Assembly: GCA_963743255.1 (NCBI GenBank)
Contig: CAVUPD010000009.1
Coordinates: forward strand, 221,827-285,826
Reading direction: 5' to 3'
From: an uncultured Chloroflexia bacterium
GTDB taxonomy: Bacteria; Chloroflexota; Anaerolineae; Anaerolineales; E44-bin32
DNA length: 64,000 bases
Made by a program: the position numbers and the translations under genes. Positions 48,745 through 62,231 of this stretch are shown here, piece by piece. Position 1 is the stretch's first letter; each line of letters opens with the position of its first letter. The notes below the pieces were generated by a model, which worked only from the letters and a program-made list of their open reading frames with translations, was not told where the DNA came from and did no database searches.

Positions 48745-50061
48745 TCACTCAGCTCGCGGCCGGGAGAGGAGCTTGTATCCTCGGCCGCGCTGGGTGATCA
48801 GGTAGCGCGGGTTGGCCGGGTCCTGCTCGATCTTGCTCCGCAAGCGGCTGACGAGCTTCTCCACGCGGGCGTCGTCGATCTCGTCCAGGTAGCCTTCGCC
48901 CCACACGGCCGTCACGATCTGGTACTTGTCGGTTAGTTTGTCGCGCCGCCCGTGCAGGAGCTGCAGCAGCTTGTACTCGAGGTCGGTCAGCACGGGGATG
49001 CGGACCTCGTCCACCCACACGTCGCCGGAATCGGGGTCCAGGCGAACCCCGGCGGCGGGCGTCTCCGGCCCGCGCAGGCGGCGCGTGACGAACGCCTCGA
49101 AGATTGGCGAGAAGGGCCGGCCGGCACGCAGCAGACCGAGTGACTCAAGGTGCTCCAACTGCTGGGGAGGCAGGCTGCTCGCCGGCTCCACTGCCAGGCT
49201 GATGATCGCCTCCTGCTCCTCGGGCGTCAACTGGTTCCAAATCTTGAGACATTCGGCGCGCGGCGTCGGTTCCAGGCCGACAACCTGGAGCGCGTCCCCG
49301 AGCTGCTCGGTCTCCATCCCGGCGACGACCTGCGCCGCCGCCACCAGGAGCCCCAGGTGCCCGCCGGCCAGCTCCAGGCAGGCCGCCACGCGCTTGGTAC
49401 CCAGGCCGGGGATGTTCAGCGAGCCGAGGATCTGTCGCGCTTCGTCATCGTCCAGCGGCGGCATCGGGTAGGTCGAGCGGGCGAACATCTCGGCGAATTC
49501 GTCTTCCACCGTGCTGCCGCGCAGGTCGGGGAGCACGCGAAGCGTGGCGGTCACGTACCCGAGCCGATCCTTGAAGCGGTCGCGCAGAGCCCGCAGGTTC
49601 AGCAGGGCGCGGTCATCCAACGTCGTGTACAGCTCGTCGAATTCATCGATCAGCAGACACAAGTCGCGCCCGAGGTGCTCGCACAGATCGGTGAGCGCCA
49701 GGTTGAACGACAGCGAAGCATTGAAGGCCGTGGTGGCGTCGGTGACTTCCTGGTGGTGGGCGCGGAGCGTGGCATTGATGTCGAGCGCCACTTGATCGGC
49801 CAGCGCCTCGAGCAGCGAGCGCAGGACGACCTCGTAGAAGCCCTGGGCCGAAATGGCCACCGCCCGGTTGCAGTCGACGTAGATCATGACCGCCCGCCGG
49901 CCGCACAGCTTGGCGTAGATGCGCTCGGCGGTTTGCCCGGAGAGGGCGCGCATCAGCGTCGACTTACCGGTGTTGCTCAGGCCGACCAGCGCCGCACATC
50001 GTCCGGCGGATAGATCGGTCAGCACCCGGCGGGCAAGGCTCTCGTAGGGCAGGACGGCCAT
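48745..50061 (-). CDS. STAND-like P-loop NTPase with C-terminal OmpR-type winged helix
   Basis: GLSNTGKST, LLIDEFD, AGGH; LTDLEYKLL..VWG..LVSRLRSKIE.DP.NPRYLITQRGRGY. Confidence 0.82.
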   Translation of the reverse strand: MAVLPYESLARRVLTDLSAGRCAALVGLSNTGKSTLMRALSGQTAERIYAKLCGRRAVMIYVDCNRAVAISAQGFYEVVLRSLLEALADQVALDINATLRAHHQEVTDATTAFNASLSFNLALTDLCEHLGRDLCLLIDEFDELYTTLDDRALLNLRALRDRFKDRLGYVTATLRVLPDLRGSTVEDEFAEMFARSTYPMPPLDDDEARQILGSLNIPGLGTKRVAACLELAGGHLGLLVAAAQVVAGMETEQLGDALQVVGLEPTPRAECLKIWNQLTPEEQEAIISLAVEPASSLPPQQLEHLESLGLLRAGRPFSPIFEAFVTRRLRGPETPAAGVRLDPDSGDVWVDEVRIPVLTDLEYKLLQLLHGRRDKLTDKYQIVTAVWGEGYLDEIDDARVEKLVSRLRSKIEQDPANPRYLITQRGRGYKLLSRPRAE

Positions 50062-50154
50062 CGGCGATCCCCCATCACGACGCGACGGCAGGGCCAACGC
50101 AAGGTTGACCCTGCCGGGATGAGACGCTTGCGTGCACTCGAACGGATGGCACGC

Positions 50155-50697
50155 CTAGGTCGTCGAGCGCATCCGCAGCTGGCGGGAGACGATCACCACC
50201 ACGACCAGCAATACGCCCAACAGTACCAGCCCGGGCAATCCGACTTCGTCGGCGAAACCCGTGCTGGGGAGCGCCGTGGCGGTCGGCGTGCCTCCGCCGC
50301 CTCCCGCAGCCGCCAACGTTGCCTGGGCGATCGCCGTGGCGATGCCCGGGTCAACCGTCGATTGCGGCGTTGACGTCGGTGACGCCACGACGACGACCGC
50401 CGTAGGCGTGGCGGTGGCCGACGGAACCGGCGTGCGCGTCGGCGCCCTGGTGTTGGTGGGGTGCAGGGCGGCCGCCGTCTGCGTCAGCGATCCGGCCGTC
50501 TTGGTGTTGTCCAAGATGATCTGGGTCGCCTGCGCGTTGCGCGACTCCTGCTGGCGCGGCGCCACCACCAGCGCATACAGCGCCAGGCAGACCATGCTCA
50601 GGACGAGCAATCCGCCCACCGCAGCCGCGGCGAACACGAAGGTCCGGTTGGACGATTCCTCCGGCGGCGCGCTACCGACCTCGAAGTCTTCTGCCAT
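50155..50697 (-). CDS. Thr/Pro-rich surface protein with N-terminal TM and C-terminal LPXTG-like sorting signal
   Basis: LPSTG, then hydrophobic stretch and RQLRMR tail; RBS GAGGAG. Confidence 0.75.
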   Translation of the reverse strand: MAEDFEVGSAPPEESSNRTFVFAAAAVGGLLVLSMVCLALYALVVAPRQQESRNAQATQIILDNTKTAGSLTQTAAALHPTNTRAPTRTPVPSATATPTAVVVVASPTSTPQSTVDPGIATAIAQATLAAAGGGGGTPTATALPSTGFADEVGLPGLVLLGVLLVVVVIVSRQLRMRSTT

Positions 50698-50759
50698 TGT
50701 CGCTTCTCCTCACGCCATGTCCTGACGACGCCCCTCGTGGTCCGGCGCCGGGGCACGGT

Positions 50760-51827
50760 CTACTGGATGACTTCCAGATTGGCCAGAGGAATCATCCGAT
50801 TCCCCAGACCCTCGATCTCGACGGCTGCACTGCGGGCGAGCAGCCCGCTCGGAAAGTCGGCGGCTTTGACAGGCAGGTCGCGCACGATGCCGACCGCGCC
50901 GTGGAACGGCGCTCGCAGCACGCGCACGCGCACACCCGCCGCCAGCGGGATGACGTCGTCAGGAACATCCGCCTGCCGGCTGGTCGGCATCGGGATGATG
51001 ACTTCGGGGCGCTGGTAGCTGTAGCGGTCTCCCGGGCGGGCGTCGACGGCGGCATCCCGACCGACGTTCGTGGTGAGCATCCCGTAGGCGACCGTGTTCA
51101 TCGGCAGCGAGCCGAAGCCTTCGGTGATCATCAGCGGGTACGGCAGGCGCAGCGCCACGGGGATGAGGTCGGAGGTGATCGAGCCAAGCACGATCCCACG
51201 CACCATCAGTTCAGTCGCCTGGTGCAGCGGGGCAGGCTGATCGCAGGTCCCGCCGATCAGCACGGCGCCGCGCAGGTTGATGTCGAGCATGTCGGTCTGC
51301 ATCCGCGCCGCCGGTCCGCTGCCCAGCGTGCGCATCACGCCGAAATCTTGCCGGCCGTTGCCCCAGATGCCCTGCACCAGCGCCGCCGTAGTCTCCAGCG
51401 TCACCGACTGGGTCCCGTCCGAGGCCACCACCATGGCCGGCATGCCGGCCCGGAGGCCGATCGGCTCGCCGCGCACCTCGAACAGCACGCGGCTGCCCTC
51501 GATGGCGACCACGCGGCCGTCGGCCGGGGCGCGCACCGTCCGGCGGGCGACACCCACCGGGCCGGCGATCGTATCGCCCATCTCCACGCGGTCGCCCTTC
51601 TCGCGAACCAGGTAGCCCGGCGCTTCCTTCGGCGGTACGCCCAGCCCGCGGGCCAGGTCGAGGTACACGTGGCGGGGTGCCGTCTCGGCTTCGGCGATCA
51701 CGTCCACGGCCTGCACCCGCTCGTTCAACCGGGCAGTGACCGTCCCGGCAATAGGCAGCGTCCGGTCCCGCCGGACGATCGTCAGCGGCAGGACGTGCGA
51801 GACGGGAGGCAAGTAGGCAGATTTCAT
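50760..51827 (-). CDS. Conserved hypothetical protein with sandwich-barrel-hybrid-like repeats, alpha/beta domain and KOW-like C-terminus
   Basis: NERVQAVDVIA, KGDRVEMGDTIA, VRAPADGRVVAI, VQGIWGNG, ITEGFG, RVRVLRAPFHGAVGIV. Confidence 0.7.
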   Translation of the reverse strand: MKSAYLPPVSHVLPLTIVRRDRTLPIAGTVTARLNERVQAVDVIAEAETAPRHVYLDLARGLGVPPKEAPGYLVREKGDRVEMGDTIAGPVGVARRTVRAPADGRVVAIEGSRVLFEVRGEPIGLRAGMPAMVVASDGTQSVTLETTAALVQGIWGNGRQDFGVMRTLGSGPAARMQTDMLDINLRGAVLIGGTCDQPAPLHQATELMVRGIVLGSITSDLIPVALRLPYPLMITEGFGSLPMNTVAYGMLTTNVGRDAAVDARPGDRYSYQRPEVIIPMPTSRQADVPDDVIPLAAGVRVRVLRAPFHGAVGIVRDLPVKAADFPSGLLARSAAVEIEGLGNRMIPLANLEVIQ

Positions 51828-51867
51828 GGCCAGGTGAGACCCGGGTTGCAAGAGAAGTGCCAGACCG

Positions 51868-53634
51868 TCATTGGAGCGCCCCGATGTCGAACAACCACTT
51901 CTGGTTGAGCTCCCGGCGCCGGCCGGGATCCTTCGGTAGCAACAGCGGGCGCCCTCGAGCGTCAATGATCAGCCCGACCGCCCCGCCGGAGACTTTCAGC
52001 GCCCCGGCCTTCCCGGGCCCGCCCAACCCGACATCGAACCCCCGCTCCGGGCGCAGCGTAAGCCGGCCGACTTCGCCCGGTCCCAGTGGGAGCACGACCA
52101 ATTGGCCGAGCCGGACCTCGCCTTCCAGCGCCGCCTGGCCCTCTCGCTCGAGCTTGACCCTGGCCACAGCCCGGCCGGCCCGCCCCCCTCCCATCGGGGA
52201 AACCACGGTGCCCAGGCTGACGAAACTGCCCGATTCCATGACGTGAACGGTGACCATCGGCAGCACAGCTGCCGCCGCGCCGAGGGCGGGCGTCAGGCTG
52301 TGCGGGTCAAGGACCAGGGTGGTGATCCCGGTTGGCTGCAGCGAATCCAACAGCGCCAGCGCGGCATAGCCCGGGCGCGGCGCCCGTGACAGCACGCCCC
52401 CGCCCGCCAGGATCGGCTCCATCTGCGGAAGCCCCGCCAGACTCCGTCCATCCTTGCCCTTCGGCCAGCCGGCGCGCGCCATGCCGAGCGCGATCTGCAG
52501 GACCTGGCGCGCCAGGGCGAATTCCAGGTGCAATTCGTCTCGCTCCATCGGGATCGTGGCTGGATGGAGGGACTTGTTGAAGATGTAGTCGCGCACCAGA
52601 TCGTCTTGCAGGTCGGTGGGCAGCCAGCGCGTGATCGACTCGATCGAGGTGTGACGCAACAGCGAAGGCAGCGGTGCCCCCAACCCGAGGTCAGTGCGCA
52701 CCGTCAGGCGCAAGTCACCTCCGAAGCCGGCGGCGATGGTCGTCTGCGAGGCGCCGATGTCGACGCCCAGCACGCCCTTACGCGGGTCGTACGTCTGGCT
52801 CAGGTGACGGATCACGCGCCCGAAGGCATCCGCCGTCAGCATCACGTAGCCGCCCGACCACTGGCGCATCTCGTCGTAGCCGGAGATCTTGGCACCGCGT
52901 AGTTCGGCGATGACTTCGGCCAGCCGGTTGCGCGCCGGCGTCAGGTCGTCACCCTCCAGCCCGGGGCGTACATTGGGCGCCAGCGAGACCGAGGTCCGGT
53001 CGGCGAAGCGTTCGACGATCGCGGCCCCCAGCTGGCGGTTGCCGGCGAACAGGACGCGCGGCACCGGCCCGCCGGGGCGCAGCCCGGCCGCCATGGCGAC
53101 GCCTTCGACCAGCCGCAGGACGGAGGCGCTGGCGCCGCCGTCCGTCCCGCCGACGATTAAGATCAGGTCGGGCCGGGTGGCGAGGATCAGGTCGATCTGC
53201 TCTTCCTCGCGCCGCCGGTCGGCGAGCCCGATCTCCTCGACCACATCCAGGTAGGTGGAGGTGGCCAGGCGCCGGCCGGATTCCAGCGACACGCCCGGGG
53301 TCAGCCCGACCAGGACGGCGCGCAAGCGAGGTCCGGCGGACGAGGTGGCGACGAACACGTCCACGCCCGCGCCTTGCGACGTACTCGGCATGATCAGGCC
53401 TTCGGAGTCGTCCAGCAGCCGGCGGCCGGTGATGGTCTGGACCTGATCGAGCGCAATGCGCACGCCTTCGCCGATATCGAGCAACGGCGTCGTCGCCGTG
53501 GAGAGCGAGCGACCGGTGGCCACCAGACGATACTGGTTGTCGACCACATCGAACAGGCTGGCCCGCGTGTGGACACTTCCCACGTCCACGGCCAGCAGCG
53601 TTTCGGAGTCGACCATCGTCGGCAGGTCCATCAT
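51868..53634 (-). CDS. Glutamate mutase L (GlmL/MutL)-like ASKHA-fold protein
   Basis: AVDVGSVHTRA, ATSSAG, PDLILIVGGTDGG, GVDIGASQT, GGGVL, IIDARGRPL. Confidence 0.82.
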   Translation of the reverse strand: MMDLPTMVDSETLLAVDVGSVHTRASLFDVVDNQYRLVATGRSLSTATTPLLDIGEGVRIALDQVQTITGRRLLDDSEGLIMPSTSQGAGVDVFVATSSAGPRLRAVLVGLTPGVSLESGRRLATSTYLDVVEEIGLADRRREEEQIDLILATRPDLILIVGGTDGGASASVLRLVEGVAMAAGLRPGGPVPRVLFAGNRQLGAAIVERFADRTSVSLAPNVRPGLEGDDLTPARNRLAEVIAELRGAKISGYDEMRQWSGGYVMLTADAFGRVIRHLSQTYDPRKGVLGVDIGASQTTIAAGFGGDLRLTVRTDLGLGAPLPSLLRHTSIESITRWLPTDLQDDLVRDYIFNKSLHPATIPMERDELHLEFALARQVLQIALGMARAGWPKGKDGRSLAGLPQMEPILAGGGVLSRAPRPGYAALALLDSLQPTGITTLVLDPHSLTPALGAAAAVLPMVTVHVMESGSFVSLGTVVSPMGGGRAGRAVARVKLEREGQAALEGEVRLGQLVVLPLGPGEVGRLTLRPERGFDVGLGGPGKAGALKVSGGAVGLIIDARGRPLLLPKDPGRRRELNQKWLFDIGALQ

Positions 53635-54368
53635 CGTCCGGCCATCAGCCCGGTCAGGGCATCCATCAGGAATTGAACCCGCTGCGTCAGGATCAGCAGC
53701 GTGGCCGAGAGGGCGCCGGCGTACATCACCCCGAAGGCCAGCGCGATGAACGATTGGCCGAGCGCGCTGACGGCCTTCCCCAGCAGGCCGATCGGCCCCA
53801 GCGGGCGGCCCTCACTCCCCGGACCGCGCCGGAGCGTAAATCGGAAGTAGGCCAGCGTGCTCAGCGTGCCCGTCAGGAGGATCATGACGTTGATCACACG
53901 CTCGAAGCCCGTTTCGCCGGTCTGCGGCGAGACCACGCCGGGATCGAAGGTGCCCATCGCCGCCAGGGATTGCGGGATCAGCGTTCCGGTGATCGCCCCG
54001 CCGACAACCACCGCCGCACCGACACCGACCAGGAACACGGTGGAAAACGTGCCCAGCCGCGAAGGCCCCGGGACGAGTTTGAGGACCAACAAGAACGCCA
54101 GCAGCGCCGGGACGAGCAGCGTCAGCGCCGCCGTCGGATTGAGCAGTCCGCCCAGGCCGGCTTGCAGGATGGGCTGCACCAGTCCGGGCCACAACACCGA
54201 GCGGGCCGCCAGCGCGCCGGCGTAGCCTGCCGCCACGCCGATGAACAGATGTGTCGCCAGACGGAAGAGCGGGTTGTCACCGATCAGGTAGCTGAGGACC
54301 ATGACCGTCAGCAGCGCGGCGACGATCGGCCCGATCAGCGTGTCGACGAGCGTGGTGATCTCGGTCAT
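53631..54368 (-). CDS. Conserved hypothetical polytopic membrane protein
   Basis: SYLIGDNPLFRLATHLFIGVAAGY; 5-6 TM helices; ATGA overlaps on both sides. Confidence 0.8.
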   Translation of the reverse strand: MTEITTLVDTLIGPIVAALLTVMVLSYLIGDNPLFRLATHLFIGVAAGYAGALAARSVLWPGLVQPILQAGLGGLLNPTAALTLLVPALLAFLLVLKLVPGPSRLGTFSTVFLVGVGAAVVVGGAITGTLIPQSLAAMGTFDPGVVSPQTGETGFERVINVMILLTGTLSTLAYFRFTLRRGPGSEGRPLGPIGLLGKAVSALGQSFIALAFGVMYAGALSATLLILTQRVQFLMDALTGLMAGR

Positions 54369-56866
54369 GCGCGCTTCGGCCTCGGCCGCGGCCTGACGGC
54401 GTGCAGGATCCATGCTCCGACCCCGGACACGCCGCCGCTGATCAGCAGGAGCTCGAGCACCAGGATCCCCAGGCTGAACGGGTTCCAGCGTTCGACCGCC
54501 GGGCCGGGCTTGCCGTTGCGCAGCTCGTAAGCCACAGCCGCCGGTTCACCGCTCAGCAGCCCGTTCACCTGTGGGCGCAGGGCCTCGTAGTAGGGCCGAA
54601 TCATCGGCTCGACACCGGCACTCAACACCATCACCAGGGGCTTCCCGCCCAGCCATGGGCTGGCTTGCTCAATCCACGACCGCGCGCTCTCTGCACCGGC
54701 GGTGATCACCACCACCATGCCGAAGTCGGACAGGGTCCGCACGCCCTCGAGGACCGGTGAACCCCATCCGGCCATCGATCCGCCGTCCGAGTCGACCGTG
54801 GCGGCAAAGCCGCTCAATACGGCCCCGCGCGGGTCGGCGGAAAAGAGCTGTATCGCCGGAACACCGCCGGAGAGATAGCCAAGGTGGACATAGTCCTCGC
54901 CGGTCCGGTAGTCGTACGCCGCGCCGCGCAGGCGCAGCAGGCGCTCGGCCAGAGGCGGGCCCGTCGGTCGCGTCGAGAGGGTCGCCAGCGGGACACCCTT
55001 CGTCATCAGGTCCTCGATCAGGGGACCAGCGACGACCTCGAGCTCGCCGGCGTTCGCCGGCTCGAAGTCGAACACCAGCAAGGCGGGACGATCAGCGGGC
55101 AGGCCGGCCACCAGATTAACCAGCGGTGCGAGCTCGAGAGGCTCGACGGTCGGCAGCGCAAACACCGACAGGCGCAAGACGATCGGCAGGGCGACGGCAA
55201 GCAGGAGCAGCCCGGCGACCGCCCAGCGCAGCAGCGGTAAGCGGCGGGGCGCTCGTCCGGTTGGGGAAATCTCGCGCAGCTCGTCCTGCACGAGTTTAGT
55301 GAGCTGCTCAGCCTGGGCATATTGTCGTTCGGTGACGTTCAGGCGCGTCGAGCCGACACCGGAAATGCGCGGCAGCGCCACAACCGGCTCCGCCATCAAC
55401 ACGCCGCGCAACCCGGCGAGCGGACCGGCCAATTCGACCGCCTGCTCGTCCTCGGGCAAGATCTCGACCACCGAGCGGAAGGTGTCCACCGGGCGCATTG
55501 CTTCCAGCCAGGTGGGGAGCGTGGCGGGCGCTAGATCGGGACGGACCTCCGAGGAAATGGCCGCCTCGGACGGCATGTTGCCTGCTTCCGTCAGCCAGTC
55601 GGGGACCCCGACGTTTTCCATGTCGAAGTCCGCGCCCTCGGCTCCGCTACCGCTCGACACAAGCGCCTGGACGTGAGGCATGGGCGCCGCGGCTTCCGGC
55701 TGCCGCAGATCCTTCATCCACTCCGGCTCTGCGGTTTCGATCGCCGGGGCCGCTTCAGGCGCGCTGGTCGTCGGCAAGACAAGAGGTGGGCGAATGGGCT
55801 GCGAGTCCGGTTCCTCGGACGCCGGGACCAGGCTCGAGAGCCCGGTCTCATCGTCGAGCCCGCCAATGCCGAAGGGTGGTGTTGGCGGAGGAGCGGCCGG
55901 GGGTTCACGCAGTCTGCCCGTCGAGCTGGCCGCCGGGATTAGGTCATCGGTGCGAGGTCCTACCGGGGCCAGGCGATCTGCGCGCTTCGCAGGCTTCGGG
56001 GCCAGCGGGCCGGTGGACCGCTCCGCCACGGCGGGAGGTGCTGGTGGTTCCGGCTCGGAGACCGGTGGCTCGGGAGCCAGGCGTTCTGAAAGGCGGCCGG
56101 TCCGCGGCTCAGGCTCGGCGGGCGGCGTCTCCGGCTCAAGCCACGAGGGCGCCGGCGGGCCGGATGCAGAGAGGAAGTCCTCCGCCGGTAGGTCGCCGGG
56201 CGTCGCGAGCAACCCGGTCAGGCCGCTGTGCCAGCCGGTCTTCTCGAGATCAAACACGTCTGGCAGTGGTTGTCCGGCTTCATCCAGGGCATCCTCGTCG
56301 ACGCCTTCTTCGGCCTGTCTGGCGCGCACGCGGGCGAGCCAATCCGGGATCTCGCCCCTTGCCGCCGGCGGTGCCGAAGGAGTTGGCTCGCCTGCCGCAG
56401 CCGGCGCAGCCGGCGACTCTTCCGCCAGCCAGGTGGGAAGTTCACCTGCCGGTGGACCTGCTTCCTCTGAGGAGGCCTCGCGCAAGCGGCTGAGCCAGTC
56501 CGGGGATTCCCCGGGGCGCCCTACGGGACGTGCGGCCGGCTCCTTCTCTTCAGGCAGCCCTGCGGGCGGCTGGGCGGCGGCGCTTCCGTCCCACTCGCTT
56601 TGCGACCAGTCTGGATCGGTGGAGCGCAAGCGCGCCAGCCAGTCGCCTTCGTCGGTCGGTTCAGCCGGCTGGGCCGGGGCTGGAGGTTCATCGTCCGGCC
56701 CGCGCAGACGGGACAGCCAGTCCGGCATTGGAGGCAGCGGTTGGTCGGATGGCGGTGGCGTTGTGCCTGCTGGAAGAACCGGCTTGAGGCGCGCCCCGCA
56801 AAATCCACATTCATCCGCCCCTTCGGGATTGGGCTTGCTGCACATCGGGCAGCGCACGTCCGCCAC
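54365..56866 (-). CDS. Zinc-ribbon, PDWL-repeat disordered region, TM, extracytoplasmic alpha/beta domain, TM
   Basis: CPMC..CGFC; about 9 P-D/T/S/E-W-L/M motifs in a Pro/Glu-rich tract; VFDFEP..GEL, GEDYVHLGYLSGG. Confidence 0.8.
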   Translation of the reverse strand: MADVRCPMCSKPNPEGADECGFCGARLKPVLPAGTTPPPSDQPLPPMPDWLSRLRGPDDEPPAPAQPAEPTDEGDWLARLRSTDPDWSQSEWDGSAAAQPPAGLPEEKEPAARPVGRPGESPDWLSRLREASSEEAGPPAGELPTWLAEESPAAPAAAGEPTPSAPPAARGEIPDWLARVRARQAEEGVDEDALDEAGQPLPDVFDLEKTGWHSGLTGLLATPGDLPAEDFLSASGPPAPSWLEPETPPAEPEPRTGRLSERLAPEPPVSEPEPPAPPAVAERSTGPLAPKPAKRADRLAPVGPRTDDLIPAASSTGRLREPPAAPPPTPPFGIGGLDDETGLSSLVPASEEPDSQPIRPPLVLPTTSAPEAAPAIETAEPEWMKDLRQPEAAAPMPHVQALVSSGSGAEGADFDMENVGVPDWLTEAGNMPSEAAISSEVRPDLAPATLPTWLEAMRPVDTFRSVVEILPEDEQAVELAGPLAGLRGVLMAEPVVALPRISGVGSTRLNVTERQYAQAEQLTKLVQDELREISPTGRAPRRLPLLRWAVAGLLLLAVALPIVLRLSVFALPTVEPLELAPLVNLVAGLPADRPALLVFDFEPANAGELEVVAGPLIEDLMTKGVPLATLSTRPTGPPLAERLLRLRGAAYDYRTGEDYVHLGYLSGGVPAIQLFSADPRGAVLSGFAATVDSDGGSMAGWGSPVLEGVRTLSDFGMVVVITAGAESARSWIEQASPWLGGKPLVMVLSAGVEPMIRPYYEALRPQVNGLLSGEPAAVAYELRNGKPGPAVERWNPFSLGILVLELLLISGGVSGVGAWILHAVRPRPRPKRA

Positions 56867-56869
56867 GGC

Positions 56870-57502
56870 TCAGTCTCCGTAGGGGCGGTCGGCCCCGAGC
56901 AGGACGCGCAAGCCGGTGGCGACGGCGCCCAGGGCGATGCCCAGGACGATGCCGCGCGCCGCCCCCGCAGCCCACACCTGCGCCAGCCAGTTGCGCAGCC
57001 ACCCGAAGTAGGCCGTCAGCCCTCCGCCGCCAAACGGCCAGGGCGCCGTGCCCAGCAGGACGAGCAGCGCCGTGACGATGAAGATCAGACTGTAGACATC
57101 ACGCCGGCGCGCCACCATGCGCACACCGGCCACGGCAAGCGACACAGCCAGCAGCGCCATCAACGTCGCTTCAACCGGAAGCTGGATGTACTCGAACAGC
57201 GAAAGGACGACACGGTTGTCCGGGCCGAACACCAGCCCGAGCACCAGCGTCCCGAGCAGGATGATGATCAGCAGCGCACTGTAGGGCCAGCCGCCTTCCT
57301 GCTGTGTGACCTTGTGCATGTGCGCGGCGAGCAAGTTCAGGATCCCAAGCAGGAGCGCCGTGGCCGAGAGCAGGATCGCCCAGCGCATGAAGAGTAGGCG
57401 CAGCTCCTGCAGCGTCTGCCACTCGACGAAGTAGCCCGCCAGCACGACCCCGCCGAACGCCATCGCCACCGCGGTCCATACGATCCACGCGCCCAGCTTC
57501 AC
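56870..57502 (-). CDS. Conserved hypothetical polytopic membrane protein
   Basis: About 6 TM helices; IQLPVEATLMALLA, AGAARGIVLGIALGAVATGLRVLLGADRPY. Confidence 0.8.
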   Translation of the reverse strand: MKLGAWIVWTAVAMAFGGVVLAGYFVEWQTLQELRLLFMRWAILLSATALLLGILNLLAAHMHKVTQQEGGWPYSALLIIILLGTLVLGLVFGPDNRVVLSLFEYIQLPVEATLMALLAVSLAVAGVRMVARRRDVYSLIFIVTALLVLLGTAPWPFGGGGLTAYFGWLRNWLAQVWAAGAARGIVLGIALGAVATGLRVLLGADRPYGD

Positions 57503-58245
57503 AGCCCAACCCCCAGCGTGCGGAGCAGCGTGCCGACCAGGATGGCCAGGATGACAAGGACGCGGACGACGTCTTGCGTGCGCAGGCTTGCGCCGTGGAA
57601 CACGCCGGCATTCAAGTAGGCGCCGCCGGCGAAGACCTCCTCGCCGATAAGCGGGTGGTCGGCCGTGGCATACAGCAACGCCTGCGCGTGGACGTCGTCA
57701 CTGCCGCCGACGACGAACGCCTGCCGCCGCTCCCCGAAGTCCGCCACCAGCGCACCCTCGGCGCCGAAGGATCCGTTCAAGATGTGGACTGAGACGCCCT
57801 CGGTGGCGAGGACGGCCGGAATGCCGGCGGCATACGAGTACGGCGTGGCCCCCAGCATTCGGCCCGAGGTCGGTTCGAAGCGATCGCCGGCGCCGACGCG
57901 CGCGTGCGCCGTGCGCAACGTGTCCTGGGCCAGGATGGCCATGGCGCCATCGGCGGTCGTGGCCACCGCCGGCCGGTCGCTCATCACCGTCGCCGATGCT
58001 ACCCGAGAGAGGACGACCAGTCCGGCCATGGCCGGCGCCAACTCCGGCCCGATCACCGAGCCGGTGCCGAGGGAGACATGGACTCGTTCGCCGGCCTCGA
58101 CGGCATGTTCGATCGCCGTCCCAAGCGCCTCGAAGCTGGGCAGACTGCGGAAGGCGGGCTGCCACTTGCGTCCCAGAAGCGCGAAGATCAGGAGCAGCAG
58201 CGTGAATGCGCCGATGACGGCCAGCCCGACCCAGTCAAAGCTCAT
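57499..58245 (-). CDS. DUF6754-like membrane protein
   Basis: N-terminal TM, R.LP.FEAL..AIEHAVEAGERVHVSLGTG, GSFGAE, LIGEEVFAGGAYL, ASLRTQD..R, C-terminal TM. Confidence 0.75.
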   Translation of the reverse strand: MSFDWVGLAVIGAFTLLLLIFALLGRKWQPAFRSLPSFEALGTAIEHAVEAGERVHVSLGTGSVIGPELAPAMAGLVVLSRVASATVMSDRPAVATTADGAMAILAQDTLRTAHARVGAGDRFEPTSGRMLGATPYSYAAGIPAVLATEGVSVHILNGSFGAEGALVADFGERRQAFVVGGSDDVHAQALLYATADHPLIGEEVFAGGAYLNAGVFHGASLRTQDVVRVLVILAILVGTLLRTLGVGL

Positions 58246-58490
58246 GGCGGCGGCTCCCGACGCAGGCTCTCGACAAACCCCGCCATGCGCTGCGGGTCCT
58301 CCAGCAAGCCCACCAGCCCCGCGCTGCGCGTGGCGTGCGGACCGATCAGGGGTCCAACCATGTACCCCAGCTGCGCGCCGACCCAGGCCAGCGGTGCGAG
58401 CGCCTCGATCAACGTTGAGGCCGCGCCCTCGAGCCCCAGCGAGCGCACTTGGGCCGCGAGTCGATCGTCGAACGATCGGTCGGGGTTCAT
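58242..58490 (-). CDS. Small conserved hypothetical protein (82 aa), first gene of operon
   Basis: LIEALAPLAWVGAQLGY..LLEDP; ATGA overlap with the next gene; ATG 7 nt below an extended -10. Confidence 0.65.
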   Translation of the reverse strand: MNPDRSFDDRLAAQVRSLGLEGAASTLIEALAPLAWVGAQLGYMVGPLIGPHATRSAGLVGLLEDPQRMAGFVESLRREPPP

Positions 58491-58497
58491 CGCGGGC

Positions 58498-58506
58498 AGT
58501 ATAGCA
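58498..58506 (-). promoter_or_regulatory. Extended -10 promoter (leaderless) for the GlmL-like operon
   Basis: TGCTATACT 7 nt upstream of ATG 58490; no SD. Confidence 0.65.
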
Positions 58507-58681: not shown

Positions 58682-59866
58682 ATGAGCCTGAATCTCCCTG
58701 GAATCCTGGGACAACTCGAGAAGATGGGCGCGGCGCTGGCTGAACAGCAGGCCGCGCTTCGCCGGTTGCAGCCGGCAGCACGCAAGGCGCTCGAGCACGC
58801 GGCAGGCCTCTCCCCGCAGGAACTCTCCGCACAGGTGGCGCGCGCCGGGGATCGCTACCGAGGCGCACGTCCCACCGACGAACCGCTTCTCACCGCTGGC
58901 GCTGCCCCGGCCCTCGAAGCCGGTTTGGTCGTTGCCGGCGCCGACGGCTCCCAGATCTACCCCGACCGGCACGCACCGGCGCTGTACTACGTGATCCAGG
59001 TTGGCGGGCTGGCCATGGAGACCGGGTCCAGCCGGGCACCGCAGACACGCACGCAGCCGCAGATCTACTTTCTGCCGGAGGACCTGCACGATCAGCAGGG
59101 GTATCCGGTCGGGAACGCCATGATCAACGGCCGGCGCGACGCGGAGGAAATGAAGGCCCTGGCCGAATGGGCGCAAGCTCACTCCGGCCGCCCGTTCGTC
59201 GCCCTGCTCGATAACGGCCTGCTGTTGTGGTTCGCCCTGCAGGTGCGCGAGCAGAACCAAAAGGACGTCGATCACATCCTGCAGTCCTACCTCGGCCACC
59301 TGGACAGCCTGCAGGCCAGCGGCGGATGCGTGGCGGGATTCATCGATCGCCCGCGAAGTGCCGACGTGCTGACACTGGCGCATCTTTCGACGCTGCCGCC
59401 CGAGGCGGTGAACGATCAATCGCTGCGCGCCAACCCGTTCCGCTCCCTCACCGATCGGGCGCTGTTCGACGACCTTCTCGGGCCGGGCCAGCGCTCGGCC
59501 TGTTTCATCGACAGCTCTCCGCTGAATCGCGATTTCGAGACGAAGGGCCATCAGGTCCGTTTCTTCTACCTGAAGACCGACGCTCGGGGGACGATCGCCC
59601 GGGTCGAAGTTCCTGCCTGGGTGGCGCAGGATCCGGCGCGGCTTGGGCGGGTGCACGCCGCCATCCTCGACCAATGCCGGGCCACGGGGGGGTTCCCGTA
59701 TGTGCTCGTTCGCGCTCACGAGCTGGCTGTCGTGACGAATCAGGATCGCCAGCAGCTCGAAGGGCTGATCCAGCAGCGGCTCGTGGACAGCCACGTGGCC
59801 GGACGCGCATCGCAGAAGGCAACGACCAAACGCTGGACGCGCTCGCGCCGCAAGCACCGACTGTAG
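58682..59866 (+). CDS. nurA: NurA family nuclease
   Basis: GADGSQI.PDRH, LLDNGLL, FFYL, ARVEVPAW, GFPYVLVRAHELAV. Confidence 0.85.
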   Translation: MSLNLPGILGQLEKMGAALAEQQAALRRLQPAARKALEHAAGLSPQELSAQVARAGDRYRGARPTDEPLLTAGAAPALEAGLVVAGADGSQIYPDRHAPALYYVIQVGGLAMETGSSRAPQTRTQPQIYFLPEDLHDQQGYPVGNAMINGRRDAEEMKALAEWAQAHSGRPFVALLDNGLLLWFALQVREQNQKDVDHILQSYLGHLDSLQASGGCVAGFIDRPRSADVLTLAHLSTLPPEAVNDQSLRANPFRSLTDRALFDDLLGPGQRSACFIDSSPLNRDFETKGHQVRFFYLKTDARGTIARVEVPAWVAQDPARLGRVHAAILDQCRATGGFPYVLVRAHELAVVTNQDRQQLEGLIQQRLVDSHVAGRASQKATTKRWTRSRRKHRL

Positions 59867-60575: not shown

Positions 60576-62231
60576 ATGACCAATACCTCCGAACTCGACG
60601 CCTACTTCGGCCCGCGCCCGGGCGAGACACCGCTGGGAATGGTGGTGGGCGGCTCGCTTTCCACCGGGCTGCTGGTCAAGCTCGACCCGCGCCTGTCGAT
60701 CGAACGCCTGGCCGTCGGGCGGTACGTCGTCATCCGCGGCACCAGCGGACGCAAGTTCTTCGGCATCGTCACCGACATCGCCCTCGACGCCACCAATCCC
60801 GACCTGATGCGCCAGCCTCCCGCACCCGGCGACGCCTTCGCCGCCGAGGTGTACTCGCGGCAGGTGGCCTACGGCACGCTGTCCGTCAGCCCGATGCTGA
60901 TGCTCGATCCGGAGGACGACCAGCCTCGTCCCAACAAGACCGTCCCGGCGCACTTCGCCCCGGTGGATGAGGCATCGGCCGAGGACGTCGAGCGCGTGTT
61001 CGGTGCCGAAGACGAGAAGCACCTGTTCCTGGGCACCCCGCTCGACATGGAGGGCGTGCACGTCAACCTCGACCTGGAGCGCTTCGTCGAGCGCTCCTCC
61101 GGCGTGTTCGGCAAGAGCGGCACGGGCAAGTCCTTCATCACGCGCATCCTGCTGGCCGGGATCATCCGCGCCGGCGGCGCCTCGGCGCTGATCTTCGACA
61201 TGCACAACGACTACGGCTGGGCGGTCAAGGACGAGGCCGGCCGCGAGTTCAAGGGCCTGCGCCAGCTCTTCACCGCCGGCCAGGTCAGCGTGGTGACGCT
61301 CGACGAGGAGACCTCCCGGGCGCGCGGCAGCAAGGTCGACCGTGTCCTCCGGATCGGCACGCAGCAGCTCGAGCCGGAGGACGTCGAGATGCTCTCCGGC
61401 CTGCTCGGACTGAGCGACGTGCAGACCGGCGCGCTGCCGTTCCTGCGGCGCCGTCTGGGACCGGCGTGGATCGACCGGCTGCTGAGCGACGGGCCCGACG
61501 AGGAGCTGGCGTCGCTGGTCGAGGAGGAGCGCATCGTCTCGTCGACGCTGGGCGCCATCCAGCGCAAGTTCGAATTCTTCCGCCGGCTTGGGTTCCTGGT
61601 GCCCGGCCCCGGCGACGACGCCGTCGATGACATCTTCCAGCGCCTGAAGCAGGGACGGAGCGTCGTGCTCGAGTTCGGCCGCTACGGGAACACGCTGGCG
61701 GCCTACATCCTGGTGGCCAACTTCCTGACCCGACGGGTCCACGAGCGCTACGTGCGCCAGAAGAACGAGGCAGTTGGGAGGAAGGCGGACGAGCCGCAGC
61801 CGCTGGTGATCGTCATCGAGGAAGCGCACAAGTTCCTCGATCCTTCGATCGCCGGCCACACCGTCTTCGGCAACATCGCCCGCGAACTGCGCAAGTACAA
61901 CGTCACGCTGCTGATCGTCGACCAGCGTCCGAGCGGCATCGACGACGAGGTGATGAGCCAGATCGGCACGCGGGTCACCTGCCTGCTGGACAACGAAGCC
62001 GACATCCGGGCGGTGTTCTCCGGCGTCAGCGGCGCCGGAGCGCTGCGCGAGGTGCTGGCCCGCCTCGACACGCGCCAGCAGGCGCTGATCCTGGGCCACG
62101 CGGTGCCGATGCCGGTGGTCGTGCGCACGCGTGACTACGATGAATCGTTCTACCGTTGGCTCGGTGCGGCCGACGACGGTGAGCGCAAGGTCCGCGCAAA
62201 GAAGGGCAGCCAGGCGTTGTTCGGGGAGTAG
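60576..62231 (+). CDS. herA: HerA/DUF87 family ATPase
   Basis: N-terminal HAS barrel, GKSGTGKS, IFDMHNDY, IVIEEAH, RELRKY, VDQRPS. Confidence 0.88.
   Translation: MTNTSELDAYFGPRPGETPLGMVVGGSLSTGLLVKLDPRLSIERLAVGRYVVIRGTSGRKFFGIVTDIALDATNPDLMRQPPAPGDAFAAEVYSRQVAYGTLSVSPMLMLDPEDDQPRPNKTVPAHFAPVDEASAEDVERVFGAEDEKHLFLGTPLDMEGVHVNLDLERFVERSSGVFGKSGTGKSFITRILLAGIIRAGGASALIFDMHNDYGWAVKDEAGREFKGLRQLFTAGQVSVVTLDEETSRARGSKVDRVLRIGTQQLEPEDVEMLSGLLGLSDVQTGALPFLRRRLGPAWIDRLLSDGPDEELASLVEEERIVSSTLGAIQRKFEFFRRLGFLVPGPGDDAVDDIFQRLKQGRSVVLEFGRYGNTLAAYILVANFLTRRVHERYVRQKNEAVGRKADEPQPLVIVIEEAHKFLDPSIAGHTVFGNIARELRKYNVTLLIVDQRPSGIDDEVMSQIGTRVTCLLDNEADIRAVFSGVSGAGALREVLARLDTRQQALILGHAVPMPVVVRTRDYDESFYRWLGAADDGERKVRAKKGSQALFGE

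Follow-up and report, generated by a model that had tools for sequence, protein, structure and literature searches.

What is a relative of GlmL, a presumed reactivase of coenzyme-B12-dependent glutamate mutase, doing in an operon of membrane proteins that contains no mutase? This question is raised by a 64,000-nucleotide stretch of DNA (hereafter, the window) from an uncultured Chloroflexia bacterium (GenBank assembly GCA_963743255.1, contig CAVUPD010000009.1, positions 221,827 to 285,826), in which eight co-oriented genes, here called A to H, occupy the minus strand from 58490 to 50155. Gene F encodes the GlmL relative, a putative ATPase of the actin/Hsp70 (ASKHA) fold, and G the protein that follows it; B, C, D and E encode membrane proteins and H a protein with an LPXTG-type motif. 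An earlier note, made from the sequence alone, had read this locus as a tightly joined gene cluster with a role other than mutase reactivation, and all of the genes it described are present on one strand. Here, we describe a conserved operon built around the F-G pair that is not tied to glutamate mutase. From its gene content and the topology of its products, we infer that it appears to be an undescribed cell-envelope machine; full-text literature searches on its protein families returned no published account of the operon.

F belongs to the MutL family but is distinct from GlmL

F falls within Pfam MutL (PF13941; 208 bits, E 3e-61, against a gathering cut-off of 27), with residues 14-467 spanning profile positions 2-447 of 450, and it shares with GlmL the ASKHA fold and the DxGSxxT, GGTDGG and DIGxxxT motifs; its ATP motifs are intact in the window. 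By sequence it is nonetheless not GlmL. Against NF040745, the GlmL equivalog model (cut-off 475), F reaches 95.2 bits, and against TIGR01319, glmL_fam (subfamily cut-off 204.05), 61.4 bits, while true GlmLs encoded beside glmE in genomes G394 and G235, used as positive controls, reach 565.4 and 610 bits on NF040745. F is 26% identical to a true GlmL, in the N-terminal half only, and GlmL-type open reading frames (ORFs) match a profile of F only to position 455 of 570. Correspondingly, F is 588 residues long and includes a conserved C-terminal domain of about 120 residues, whereas GlmL has about 460 residues and no further domain. Genome G394 holds both types in separate contexts: a GlmL of about 460 residues beside glmE, and a B-C-D-E-F-G cluster whose F reaches 28 bits. 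Some public records nevertheless label F homologues ‘glutamate mutase L’. In one paper (PMC5597319), glutamate mutase is listed with the actin-superfamily enzymes that do not polymerise and that entered a tree.

The genomic distribution of the two proteins is equally distinct. Among 401 Chloroflexota genomes, F homologues (counted at E <= 1e-10 through the C-terminal end, a tally that takes in a few true GlmLs and the unpublished genome G038) occur in 213, while glmE (PF06368) exceeds its cut-off in 8; by a comparison of the two lists by eye, 208 of the 213 F-positive genomes lack glmE. The window's own genome, which is 80% complete, contains a single MutL-family gene and yielded no glmE in a PF06368 search. 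It does contain five matches to B12-binding domains, three of them over the Pfam cut-off, on other contigs; the window's contig has no B12-binding domain gene, consistent with the earlier note's statement that the window has no B12 enzyme. Thus F shows no strict co-occurrence with glmE or glmS and no linkage to them, and its partners in the genome are instead G and the membrane proteins.

F and G are the core of a conserved operon

Conservation of the operon was followed at two depths. A scan of reference genomes with a motif from the F C-terminal domain, G[VL][VI][IVF]D[AG]RGRP, matched at least 598 stretches, 564 of which were confirmed, and every one of the 80 best loci has a title from Chloroflexota (Anaerolineales, Anaerolineae or Thermoflexia). 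When at least 5.4 kb of upstream and 1.9 kb of downstream sequence were required, 61 of these loci qualified, and 56 of them encode the complete A-H set in order; the five exceptions lack A (L064, L107 and L116), G and H (L114) or H (L119). F is followed by G in 77 of 78 related loci, and F itself is 62-67% identical to many Anaerolineales metagenome proteins. H, which the earlier note had set down as a gene that simply follows the cluster, is on this evidence a conserved member of the operon.

Across greater distances the operon thins out. We searched 20 loci from diverse families for A to H with iterated profiles, and found F in all 20, G directly downstream in 16, a D-like ORF in 13, B, C and E in 12 each, A in 11 and H in 3; B through F are present in 12. 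The four loci without an adjacent G have a single G gene elsewhere in each genome. A homologues head the cluster in all 11 diverse loci that have one, and in most of the 80 close loci. Genes B-G are found in several other families of the phylum, in line with the earlier note's statement that similar gene sets occur in other Chloroflexota. DUF6754, the family of B, is single-copy in 92 of the 401 Chloroflexota genomes and absent from 14 control genomes, and 88 of these 92 genomes also contain F (two lists, compared by eye). Because F is present in 213 genomes and DUF6754 in 92, nearly all of which have F, F and G are the core pair, and A-E make up a membrane module that some lineages have in addition. 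The G family is large in its own right, with 3,848 representative clusters (at 50% identity) found at E <= 1e-3 and 1,310 at E <= 1e-30, the top 150 of which are all about 340-420 residues long. It has no curated Pfam or NCBIfam model, the only matches being to RnfC and below cut-offs.

The surroundings of F and G in other lineages vary. In the four genomes where G does not stand beside F (G223, G231, G295 and G279; G loci L052-L055), G is followed by a receiver-domain protein, with a hybrid histidine kinase (receiver, HisKA and HATPase domains, plus GAF in two) in between in three; none was seen in L053. Three of the four also have a gene for the ATP synthase a-subunit in the vicinity, and in one G has a YkuD L,D-transpeptidase gene as its neighbour. 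In lineages that have F and G only, the neighbours in three loci (L036, L044 and L049, in G210, G197 and G374) are secreted or wall-related: among them are a 962-residue CarboxypepD_reg-repeat protein and a 1055-residue lamin-tail-domain (LTD) protein downstream of G, and a LytR-CpsA-Psr (LCP) gene upstream of F.

G is predicted to clasp F

The C-terminal domain that sets F apart from GlmL (residues 455-588) was modeled with a mean predicted local distance difference test score (pLDDT) of 91.5 as a beta-sandwich followed by a helix. Four of the eight invariant residues of the F family lie in it (D558, R560, P563 and W580). Its best fold match is generic, to FN3 domains (VIA Z 5.2), and Foldseek gave no match at E <= 1e-3.

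The earlier note had taken G for a barrel-sandwich repeat protein. The model of G (pLDDT 86.2) instead predicts three different domains, only one of them a barrel-sandwich. Domain 1 (residues ~12-125) is a barrel-sandwich hybrid resembling RnfC (8ahx_C, Z 7.9, 67 residues aligned at 30% identity) and NqrA (Z 7.2), with a weak Pfam RnfC_N score of 22.7 bits, under the cut-off of 25.6. Domain 2 (~148-282) has a swivelling beta/beta/alpha fold whose best match is enzyme I of the phosphotransferase system (PTS; 2wqd_A, Z 11.8, root-mean-square deviation (rmsd) 2.3, 106 residues aligned), followed by rifampin phosphotransferase (5hv1_A, Z 10.8) and aconitase X (Z 10.2); across the 2wqd_A and 5hv1_A matches the rmsd is 2.3-2.5 over 103-106 residues. 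The same domain also resembles the swivelling domain of the diol dehydratase-reactivating factor DdrA (2d0o_A; VIA-align Z 8.0, rmsd 2.9, 112 aligned), and Foldseek likewise returned 1nbw_C (E 6.6e-3) and 2d0o_C (E 1.5e-2). Domain 3 (~292-355) is KOW/SH3-like, matching the KOW domains of Spt5 and NusG at Z 7.7-8.0. Unlike phosphoenolpyruvate (PEP)-utilising enzymes such as PTS enzyme I and rifampin phosphotransferase, G has no conserved phospho-accepting histidine (a 30-sequence alignment has no histidine among its invariant or nearly invariant columns) and is not accompanied by partner domains of the PEP-utilising or ATP-grasp type. Most of its conserved residues are glycines, alongside V, A, P and E275. 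In a TEGFG loop (235-239), G237 is invariant and G239 nearly so.

The earlier note had named a lack of contacts between subunits as grounds for refutation, and such contacts are predicted for F and G. The F-G complex scores an ipSAE of 0.92 (0.92, 0.91 and 0.92 in separate runs), whereas the best of three controls scores 0.01. Between runs, 92% or more of the contacts agree, and partner pLDDT is at least 89. In calibration, 58 of 80 solved complexes attained this ipSAE mark, as did 2 of 110 mismatched pairs; these counts are only roughly valid here because our own alignments were used. Apart from a short-motif match of G, sequence searches returned no solved relative of either protein, so that recall of a known structure is an unlikely source of the score. 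In the predicted complex all three domains of G contact F. On F, the contacts include residues 345-368, among them the invariant P358, as well as residue 20 of the first phosphate loop and the stretch 417-420, which adjoins the GGG motif; the G side includes residues 237-239 of the TEGFG loop. These models predict that G clasps F.

The short-motif match just mentioned is to the cell-wall-binding repeats of the phage lysozyme Cpl-7 (5i8l, E 3.8e-7). It sets a single 30-residue motif of G against three identical repeats, each stretch scoring about 10 bits, and we discarded it. The segment concerned (51290-51380, residues 146-176) contains QGIWGNG, which resembles the core of the CW_7 repeat and recurs as QG(V/I)WGNG in close homologues; we judge the likeness in sequence to be a coincidence of short motifs.

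Putative membrane and wall components

A simple hydropathy scan gave two transmembrane (TM) helices each for B, D and H, about six for C and about five for E. B matches Pfam DUF6754 (PF20539; 101.7 bits, E 4.8e-29, cut-off 27), with TM helices at residues 1-28 and 223-248 flanking a soluble domain of about 195 residues, and its matches in the ESM Atlas are DUF6754 clusters only, chiefly from Chloroflexota. C has the invariant residues P109, L118, R183, G184, G188 and R199. A, C, E and H matched no Pfam or NCBIfam family. When every member of the C, E, D C-terminal and F C-terminal alignments was scanned, only scattered single Pfam matches appeared. The D C-terminal and B profiles found nothing below E 0.1 among PDB sequences. 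As a test for internal duplications, B was compared with the C-terminal part of D, and C with E, by hhalign, which detected no homology. The C-terminal part of D matches unnamed ESM Atlas clusters at 0.89-0.90, which we treat as leads only.

D is the largest and most elaborate of these proteins. A Zn ribbon at residues 6-27 (Zn_Ribbon_1, a weak 19.5 bits under a cut-off of 25) is followed by a disordered, Pro/Ala-rich region (48-455) with eight PxW[LM] motifs, and then by TM helices at ~542-575 and ~795-824, between which lies a conserved domain of about 220 residues whose WxEQ and QPY motifs contain an invariant W, an invariant Q and two invariant prolines. This domain likely lies outside the membrane. 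The motif array is a recurrent property of D: in 12 of the 20 diverse loci, the D-like ORF carries 3-49 PxW[LMIV] motifs and is the sole ORF of its locus with at least three, against a background of 0.9 per 1000 residues. The consensus over 224 motifs is [DE]-[LVI]-P-x-W-L-[RQK]-[ED]-[ED], and the median distance from one motif to the next is 25 residues. In L039 and L042, a D-like protein without TM helices ends in a basic-aromatic tail, and F homologues of L037, L038, L040 and L041 bear similar tails, that of L040 with PDWL motifs. FtsA and MinD carry membrane-binding amphipathic helices, and by analogy we read these tails as possible membrane-binding elements.

The window's genome encodes a second protein with PxWL repeats (G000:C2:97556-101880; L136:5566-9881, plus strand), in which a disordered stretch containing 17 or more PxW[LM] motifs lies between TPR-like N- and C-termini. 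Its coding sequence is divided among three overlapping ORFs, possibly by frameshifts or assembly errors. Because of this second protein, the receptor of the PxWL motif is probably not private to the operon.

H was described in the earlier note as an LPXTG-type protein, and here the description stands. A conserved acidic N-terminus ending in EESSNRTF is followed by a TM helix, then a proline, a Thr/Pro/Ala-rich linker and, at the C-terminal end, LPSTG, a hydrophobic stretch and the basic tail RQLRMR. H homologues share this layout, down to a hydrophobic and basic C-terminal end; [LIVM]Px[TSA]G is present in 65 of 75 of them, and the genome has two sortase genes (PF04203 matches), giving H the sequence hallmarks of a sortase substrate. 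Unlike typical sortase-anchored proteins, H keeps a conserved, putatively cytoplasmic N-terminal motif and TM helix and has no folded surface domain, only the linker. Since these N-terminal features are conserved, H probably stays in the membrane too, and the protein may be attached at both ends, through its N-terminus to the membrane and through its C-terminus to the wall.

A conserved extended -10 box precedes the operon

The earlier note had the genes run from one extended -10 promoter. A box of this type, TGCTATACT (TGcTATACT), is present 7 nucleotides before the ATG of A, and a scan for two-hexamer promoters detected none upstream of A. TGnTATAnT stands at the start of A in 56 of the 63 related loci that have an A homologue, in 50 of them as exactly TGCTATACT, against a chance expectation of 0.007 per 140-nucleotide window. 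The 50 loci with the exact box (among L056-L135) have surroundings that vary from GC-rich to AT-rich, and of all 111 occurrences of TGnTATAnT in L056-L135, on both strands, 56 are those upstream of A. In 38 of the 56 box-bearing loci the next in-frame start lies 6-8 nucleotides downstream of the box, a layout that fits a leaderless transcript.

Two studies provide RNA-library contigs that are 90-99% alike to the window and hence derive from relatives. Their coverage is 28, 26 and 19 of 30 bins, and individual contigs bridge five of the gene junctions (Table 1). The A/B junction has no bridge among the listed contig pieces; uncovered bins carry no weight. Such contigs are proof neither of transcription nor of one single transcript. 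One of them extends to 58537, 31 nucleotides past the box, which counts against a single start there.

Gene order and surroundings

The genes are closely packed, as the earlier note had described: four junctions are 4-nucleotide overlaps (ATGA at A/B, D/E and E/F; GTGA at B/C), and the gaps are 3 nucleotides at C/D, 40 at F/G and 62 at G/H (Table 1). The flanks are unrelated to the operon, with metabolic genes of an ordinary kind further out. Divergent from the operon are a NurA gene (58682-59866, plus strand, E 1.3e-25) and, about 700 nucleotides beyond it, a HerA-type gene (DUF87; 60576-62231, plus strand, E 4.1e-28). Directly downstream of H, at 48745-50097 on the minus strand, lies a gene whose 450-residue product begins with an AAA/STAND-like NTPase and ends with a winged-helix domain of the OmpR type (Trans_reg_C, E 2.4e-16).

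Table 1. Features of the operon and RNA-library contigs that bridge its junctions (coordinates in the window).
Feature	Coordinates	Strand	Description
Extended -10 box TGCTATACT	58498-58506	-	Sequence read; conserved in relatives
A	58242-58490	-	82 aa; no Pfam or NCBIfam match
B	57499-58245	-	248 aa; DUF6754, TM helices at both ends
C	56870-57502	-	210 aa; ~6 TM helices, no known family
D	54365-56866	-	833 aa; Zn ribbon, disordered PxWL region, 2 TM helices
E	53631-54368	-	245 aa; ~5 TM helices, no known family
F	51868-53634	-	588 aa; putative ASKHA ATPase, Pfam MutL with added C-terminal domain
F C-terminal domain	51871-52272	-	Residues 455-588; predicted beta-sandwich then helix
G	50760-51827	-	355 aa; three-domain predicted partner of F
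H	50155-50697	-	180 aa; TM helix and LPSTG, sortase-substrate form
B/C junction bridged	57233-57631 (X9); 57352-57789 (X20)		RNA-library contigs
C/D junction bridged	56750-57169 (X9)		RNA-library contig
D/E junction bridged	53769-54682 (X9); 53673-54929 (X20)		RNA-library contigs
E/F junction bridged	53504-53861 (X9)		RNA-library contig
F/G junction bridged	51754-52341 (X9)		RNA-library contig

Discussion

We propose, tentatively and with somewhat less than even confidence, that the operon encodes a membrane-docked actin/Hsp70-fold ATPase complex coupled across the cell envelope. F, clasped by all three domains of G at sites that include elements beside its nucleotide cleft, would form with G a cytoplasmic, nucleotide-dependent switch or assembly unit. 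D, through its Zn ribbon, its multiple [DE]-hydrophobic-P-x-W-L motifs and its two TM helices, would together with B, C and E hold this unit at the inner face of the membrane, while in other lineages it may be docked by the basic-aromatic tail of F, or by that of a D-like protein without TM helices. With the inter-TM domain of D and the sortase-substrate end of H reaching the wall side, and the N-terminus of H in the membrane, the unit would span from cytoplasm to wall. ATP-state changes in the cytoplasm might then be relayed to envelope components, in the manner of the MreB-RodZ-MreCD or FtsA/PilM platforms. We also count toward an envelope role the secreted or wall-related genes (LCP, LTD, CarboxypepD_reg and YkuD) found around F and G elsewhere.

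The resemblance to these platforms is one of architecture. MreB with RodZ and MreC/MreD, FtsA, and PilM with PilN likewise place an actin-fold ATPase at the membrane with bitopic and polytopic partners; a RodZ-type bitopic protein holds such an ATPase at the membrane, and D resembles RodZ in its layout, in which a disordered linker and a TM helix join a small domain in the cytoplasm to one on the outer side. The differences are substantial: F has no sequence kinship with MreB, FtsA or PilM beyond the ASKHA superfamily, MreB and FtsA are themselves present in the genomes tested, and the known platforms have nothing that corresponds to G, the PxWL repeats or H.

Several observations weigh against our proposal. 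No subunit has a characterised relative that would fix an activity, and the function of the operon is read from sequence. More than half of the genomes with F do without the membrane module, which implies that the core job of F and G does not need it. The ATP motifs of F are degenerate in several F-G-only lineages (L036, L039, L044, L046, L049 and L050), and because of this decay ATP turnover may not be universal in the family. The C-terminal domain, the most conserved part of F, lies outside the predicted interface with G; the contact prediction is for F and G; and the sidedness of the D and B domains is read solely from charge distribution. FtsW/RodA is present in four of five F-negative genomes tested, so F is not tied to the wall in that sense, and the idea that F tracks peptidoglycan found no support. 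FtsA and MreB are both present in all five genomes tested, so that F fills no obvious gap, and we rejected the notion that F stands in for either of them.

There are other readings of the F-G pair. The two proteins could be an ATP-driven chaperone or remodeller akin to Hsp70 or DdrA, with G supplying the swivelling domain in trans, and with the membrane proteins B-E or the membrane- and wall-anchored H as the client for assembly, repair or quality control. The nearest named relatives of F are presumed reactivases, the combination of an ASKHA ATPase with a swivelling beta/beta/alpha domain recalls DdrAB (2d0o, 1nbw), and the predicted contacts of G adjoin nucleotide-binding elements of F much as exchange factors contact Hsp70 beside its own. 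However, in DdrA the swivelling domain is an insert within the same chain, whereas here it would sit on a separate three-domain protein; no beta subunit is present, and no dehydratase or other client enzyme is linked to the cluster in the loci examined. The fold is also widespread and fits PTS enzyme I better than DdrA, the ATP motifs decay in some lineages, and the multivalent PxWL scaffold would be left unexplained, such that we regard a remodeller as rather unlikely. It is very unlikely, in our estimation, that F is instead a kinase or transferase of the ASKHA type whose substrate is an envelope precursor, with G either a mobile carrier or the subunit that presents the substrate, and with the membrane proteins importing or exporting the product. 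Many ASKHA families are kinases, the swivelling fold of G is that of phosphohistidine carriers, and in four Chloroflexia-like genomes G adjoins hybrid histidine kinase and receiver proteins, but G lacks a conserved histidine, the phosphate motifs of F vary in several lineages while its most conserved part is a non-catalytic-looking beta-sandwich, and no substrate-pathway genes are linked to the cluster.

A dedicated export or anchoring system for H or similar proteins, in which B, C and E form a channel energised by F, would account for the position of H after G in nearly all Anaerolineae-type loci and for the large secreted repeat proteins after G in two other lineages. Yet F and G persist where H does not, as H is found in just 3 of the 20 diverse loci; Pfam and NCBIfam scans and the C and E alignments revealed no likeness to a known secretion ATPase or channel, and ASKHA proteins are not known to serve as translocation motors, leaving this reading highly unlikely. 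Finally, F could be a canonical GlmL that reactivates a coenzyme-B12 mutase encoded elsewhere. The Pfam match, the public ‘glutamate mutase L’ labels and the B12-binding-domain matches on other contigs point that way; the low scores on both GlmL models, the limited identity to true GlmL, the rarity of glmE in the phylum and its absence from the recovered part of this genome, and the coexistence of both gene types in G394 all point the other way. We consider it strongly disfavoured, with a near-negligible probability, in agreement with the earlier note's view that the cluster does not serve mutase reactivation.

A bolder version of the envelope-coupled complex that we prefer would make F a new kind of membrane-tethered actin-fold assembly protein, its copies gathered or nucleated by the 8-49 tandem PxWL motifs of the Zn-ribbon protein D by analogy with tandem-WH2 nucleators, with G gating its nucleotide cleft and the outer domain of D and H coupling its assembly mechanically to the wall in filamentous Chloroflexota. 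We hold this to be quite unlikely. If true, it would suggest roles such as surface motility, the forming of septal junctions or keeping filaments intact.

Members of Chloroflexota abound in soil, sediment and wastewater sludge. Little is known of their cell biology. The operon described here is near-universal in several families of the phylum, and its core proteins are strongly conserved. Its recognition as a system separate from GlmL would correct the widespread mis-annotation of F as ‘glutamate mutase L’, and would define G as a new partner family for an actin/Hsp70-fold ATPase. Moreover, the confidently predicted F-G interface, the multivalent PxWL motif, the leaderless-type promoter and H, whose build suits anchoring in membrane and wall alike, provide testable parts for a possible coupling of cytoplasm to wall in these bacteria.

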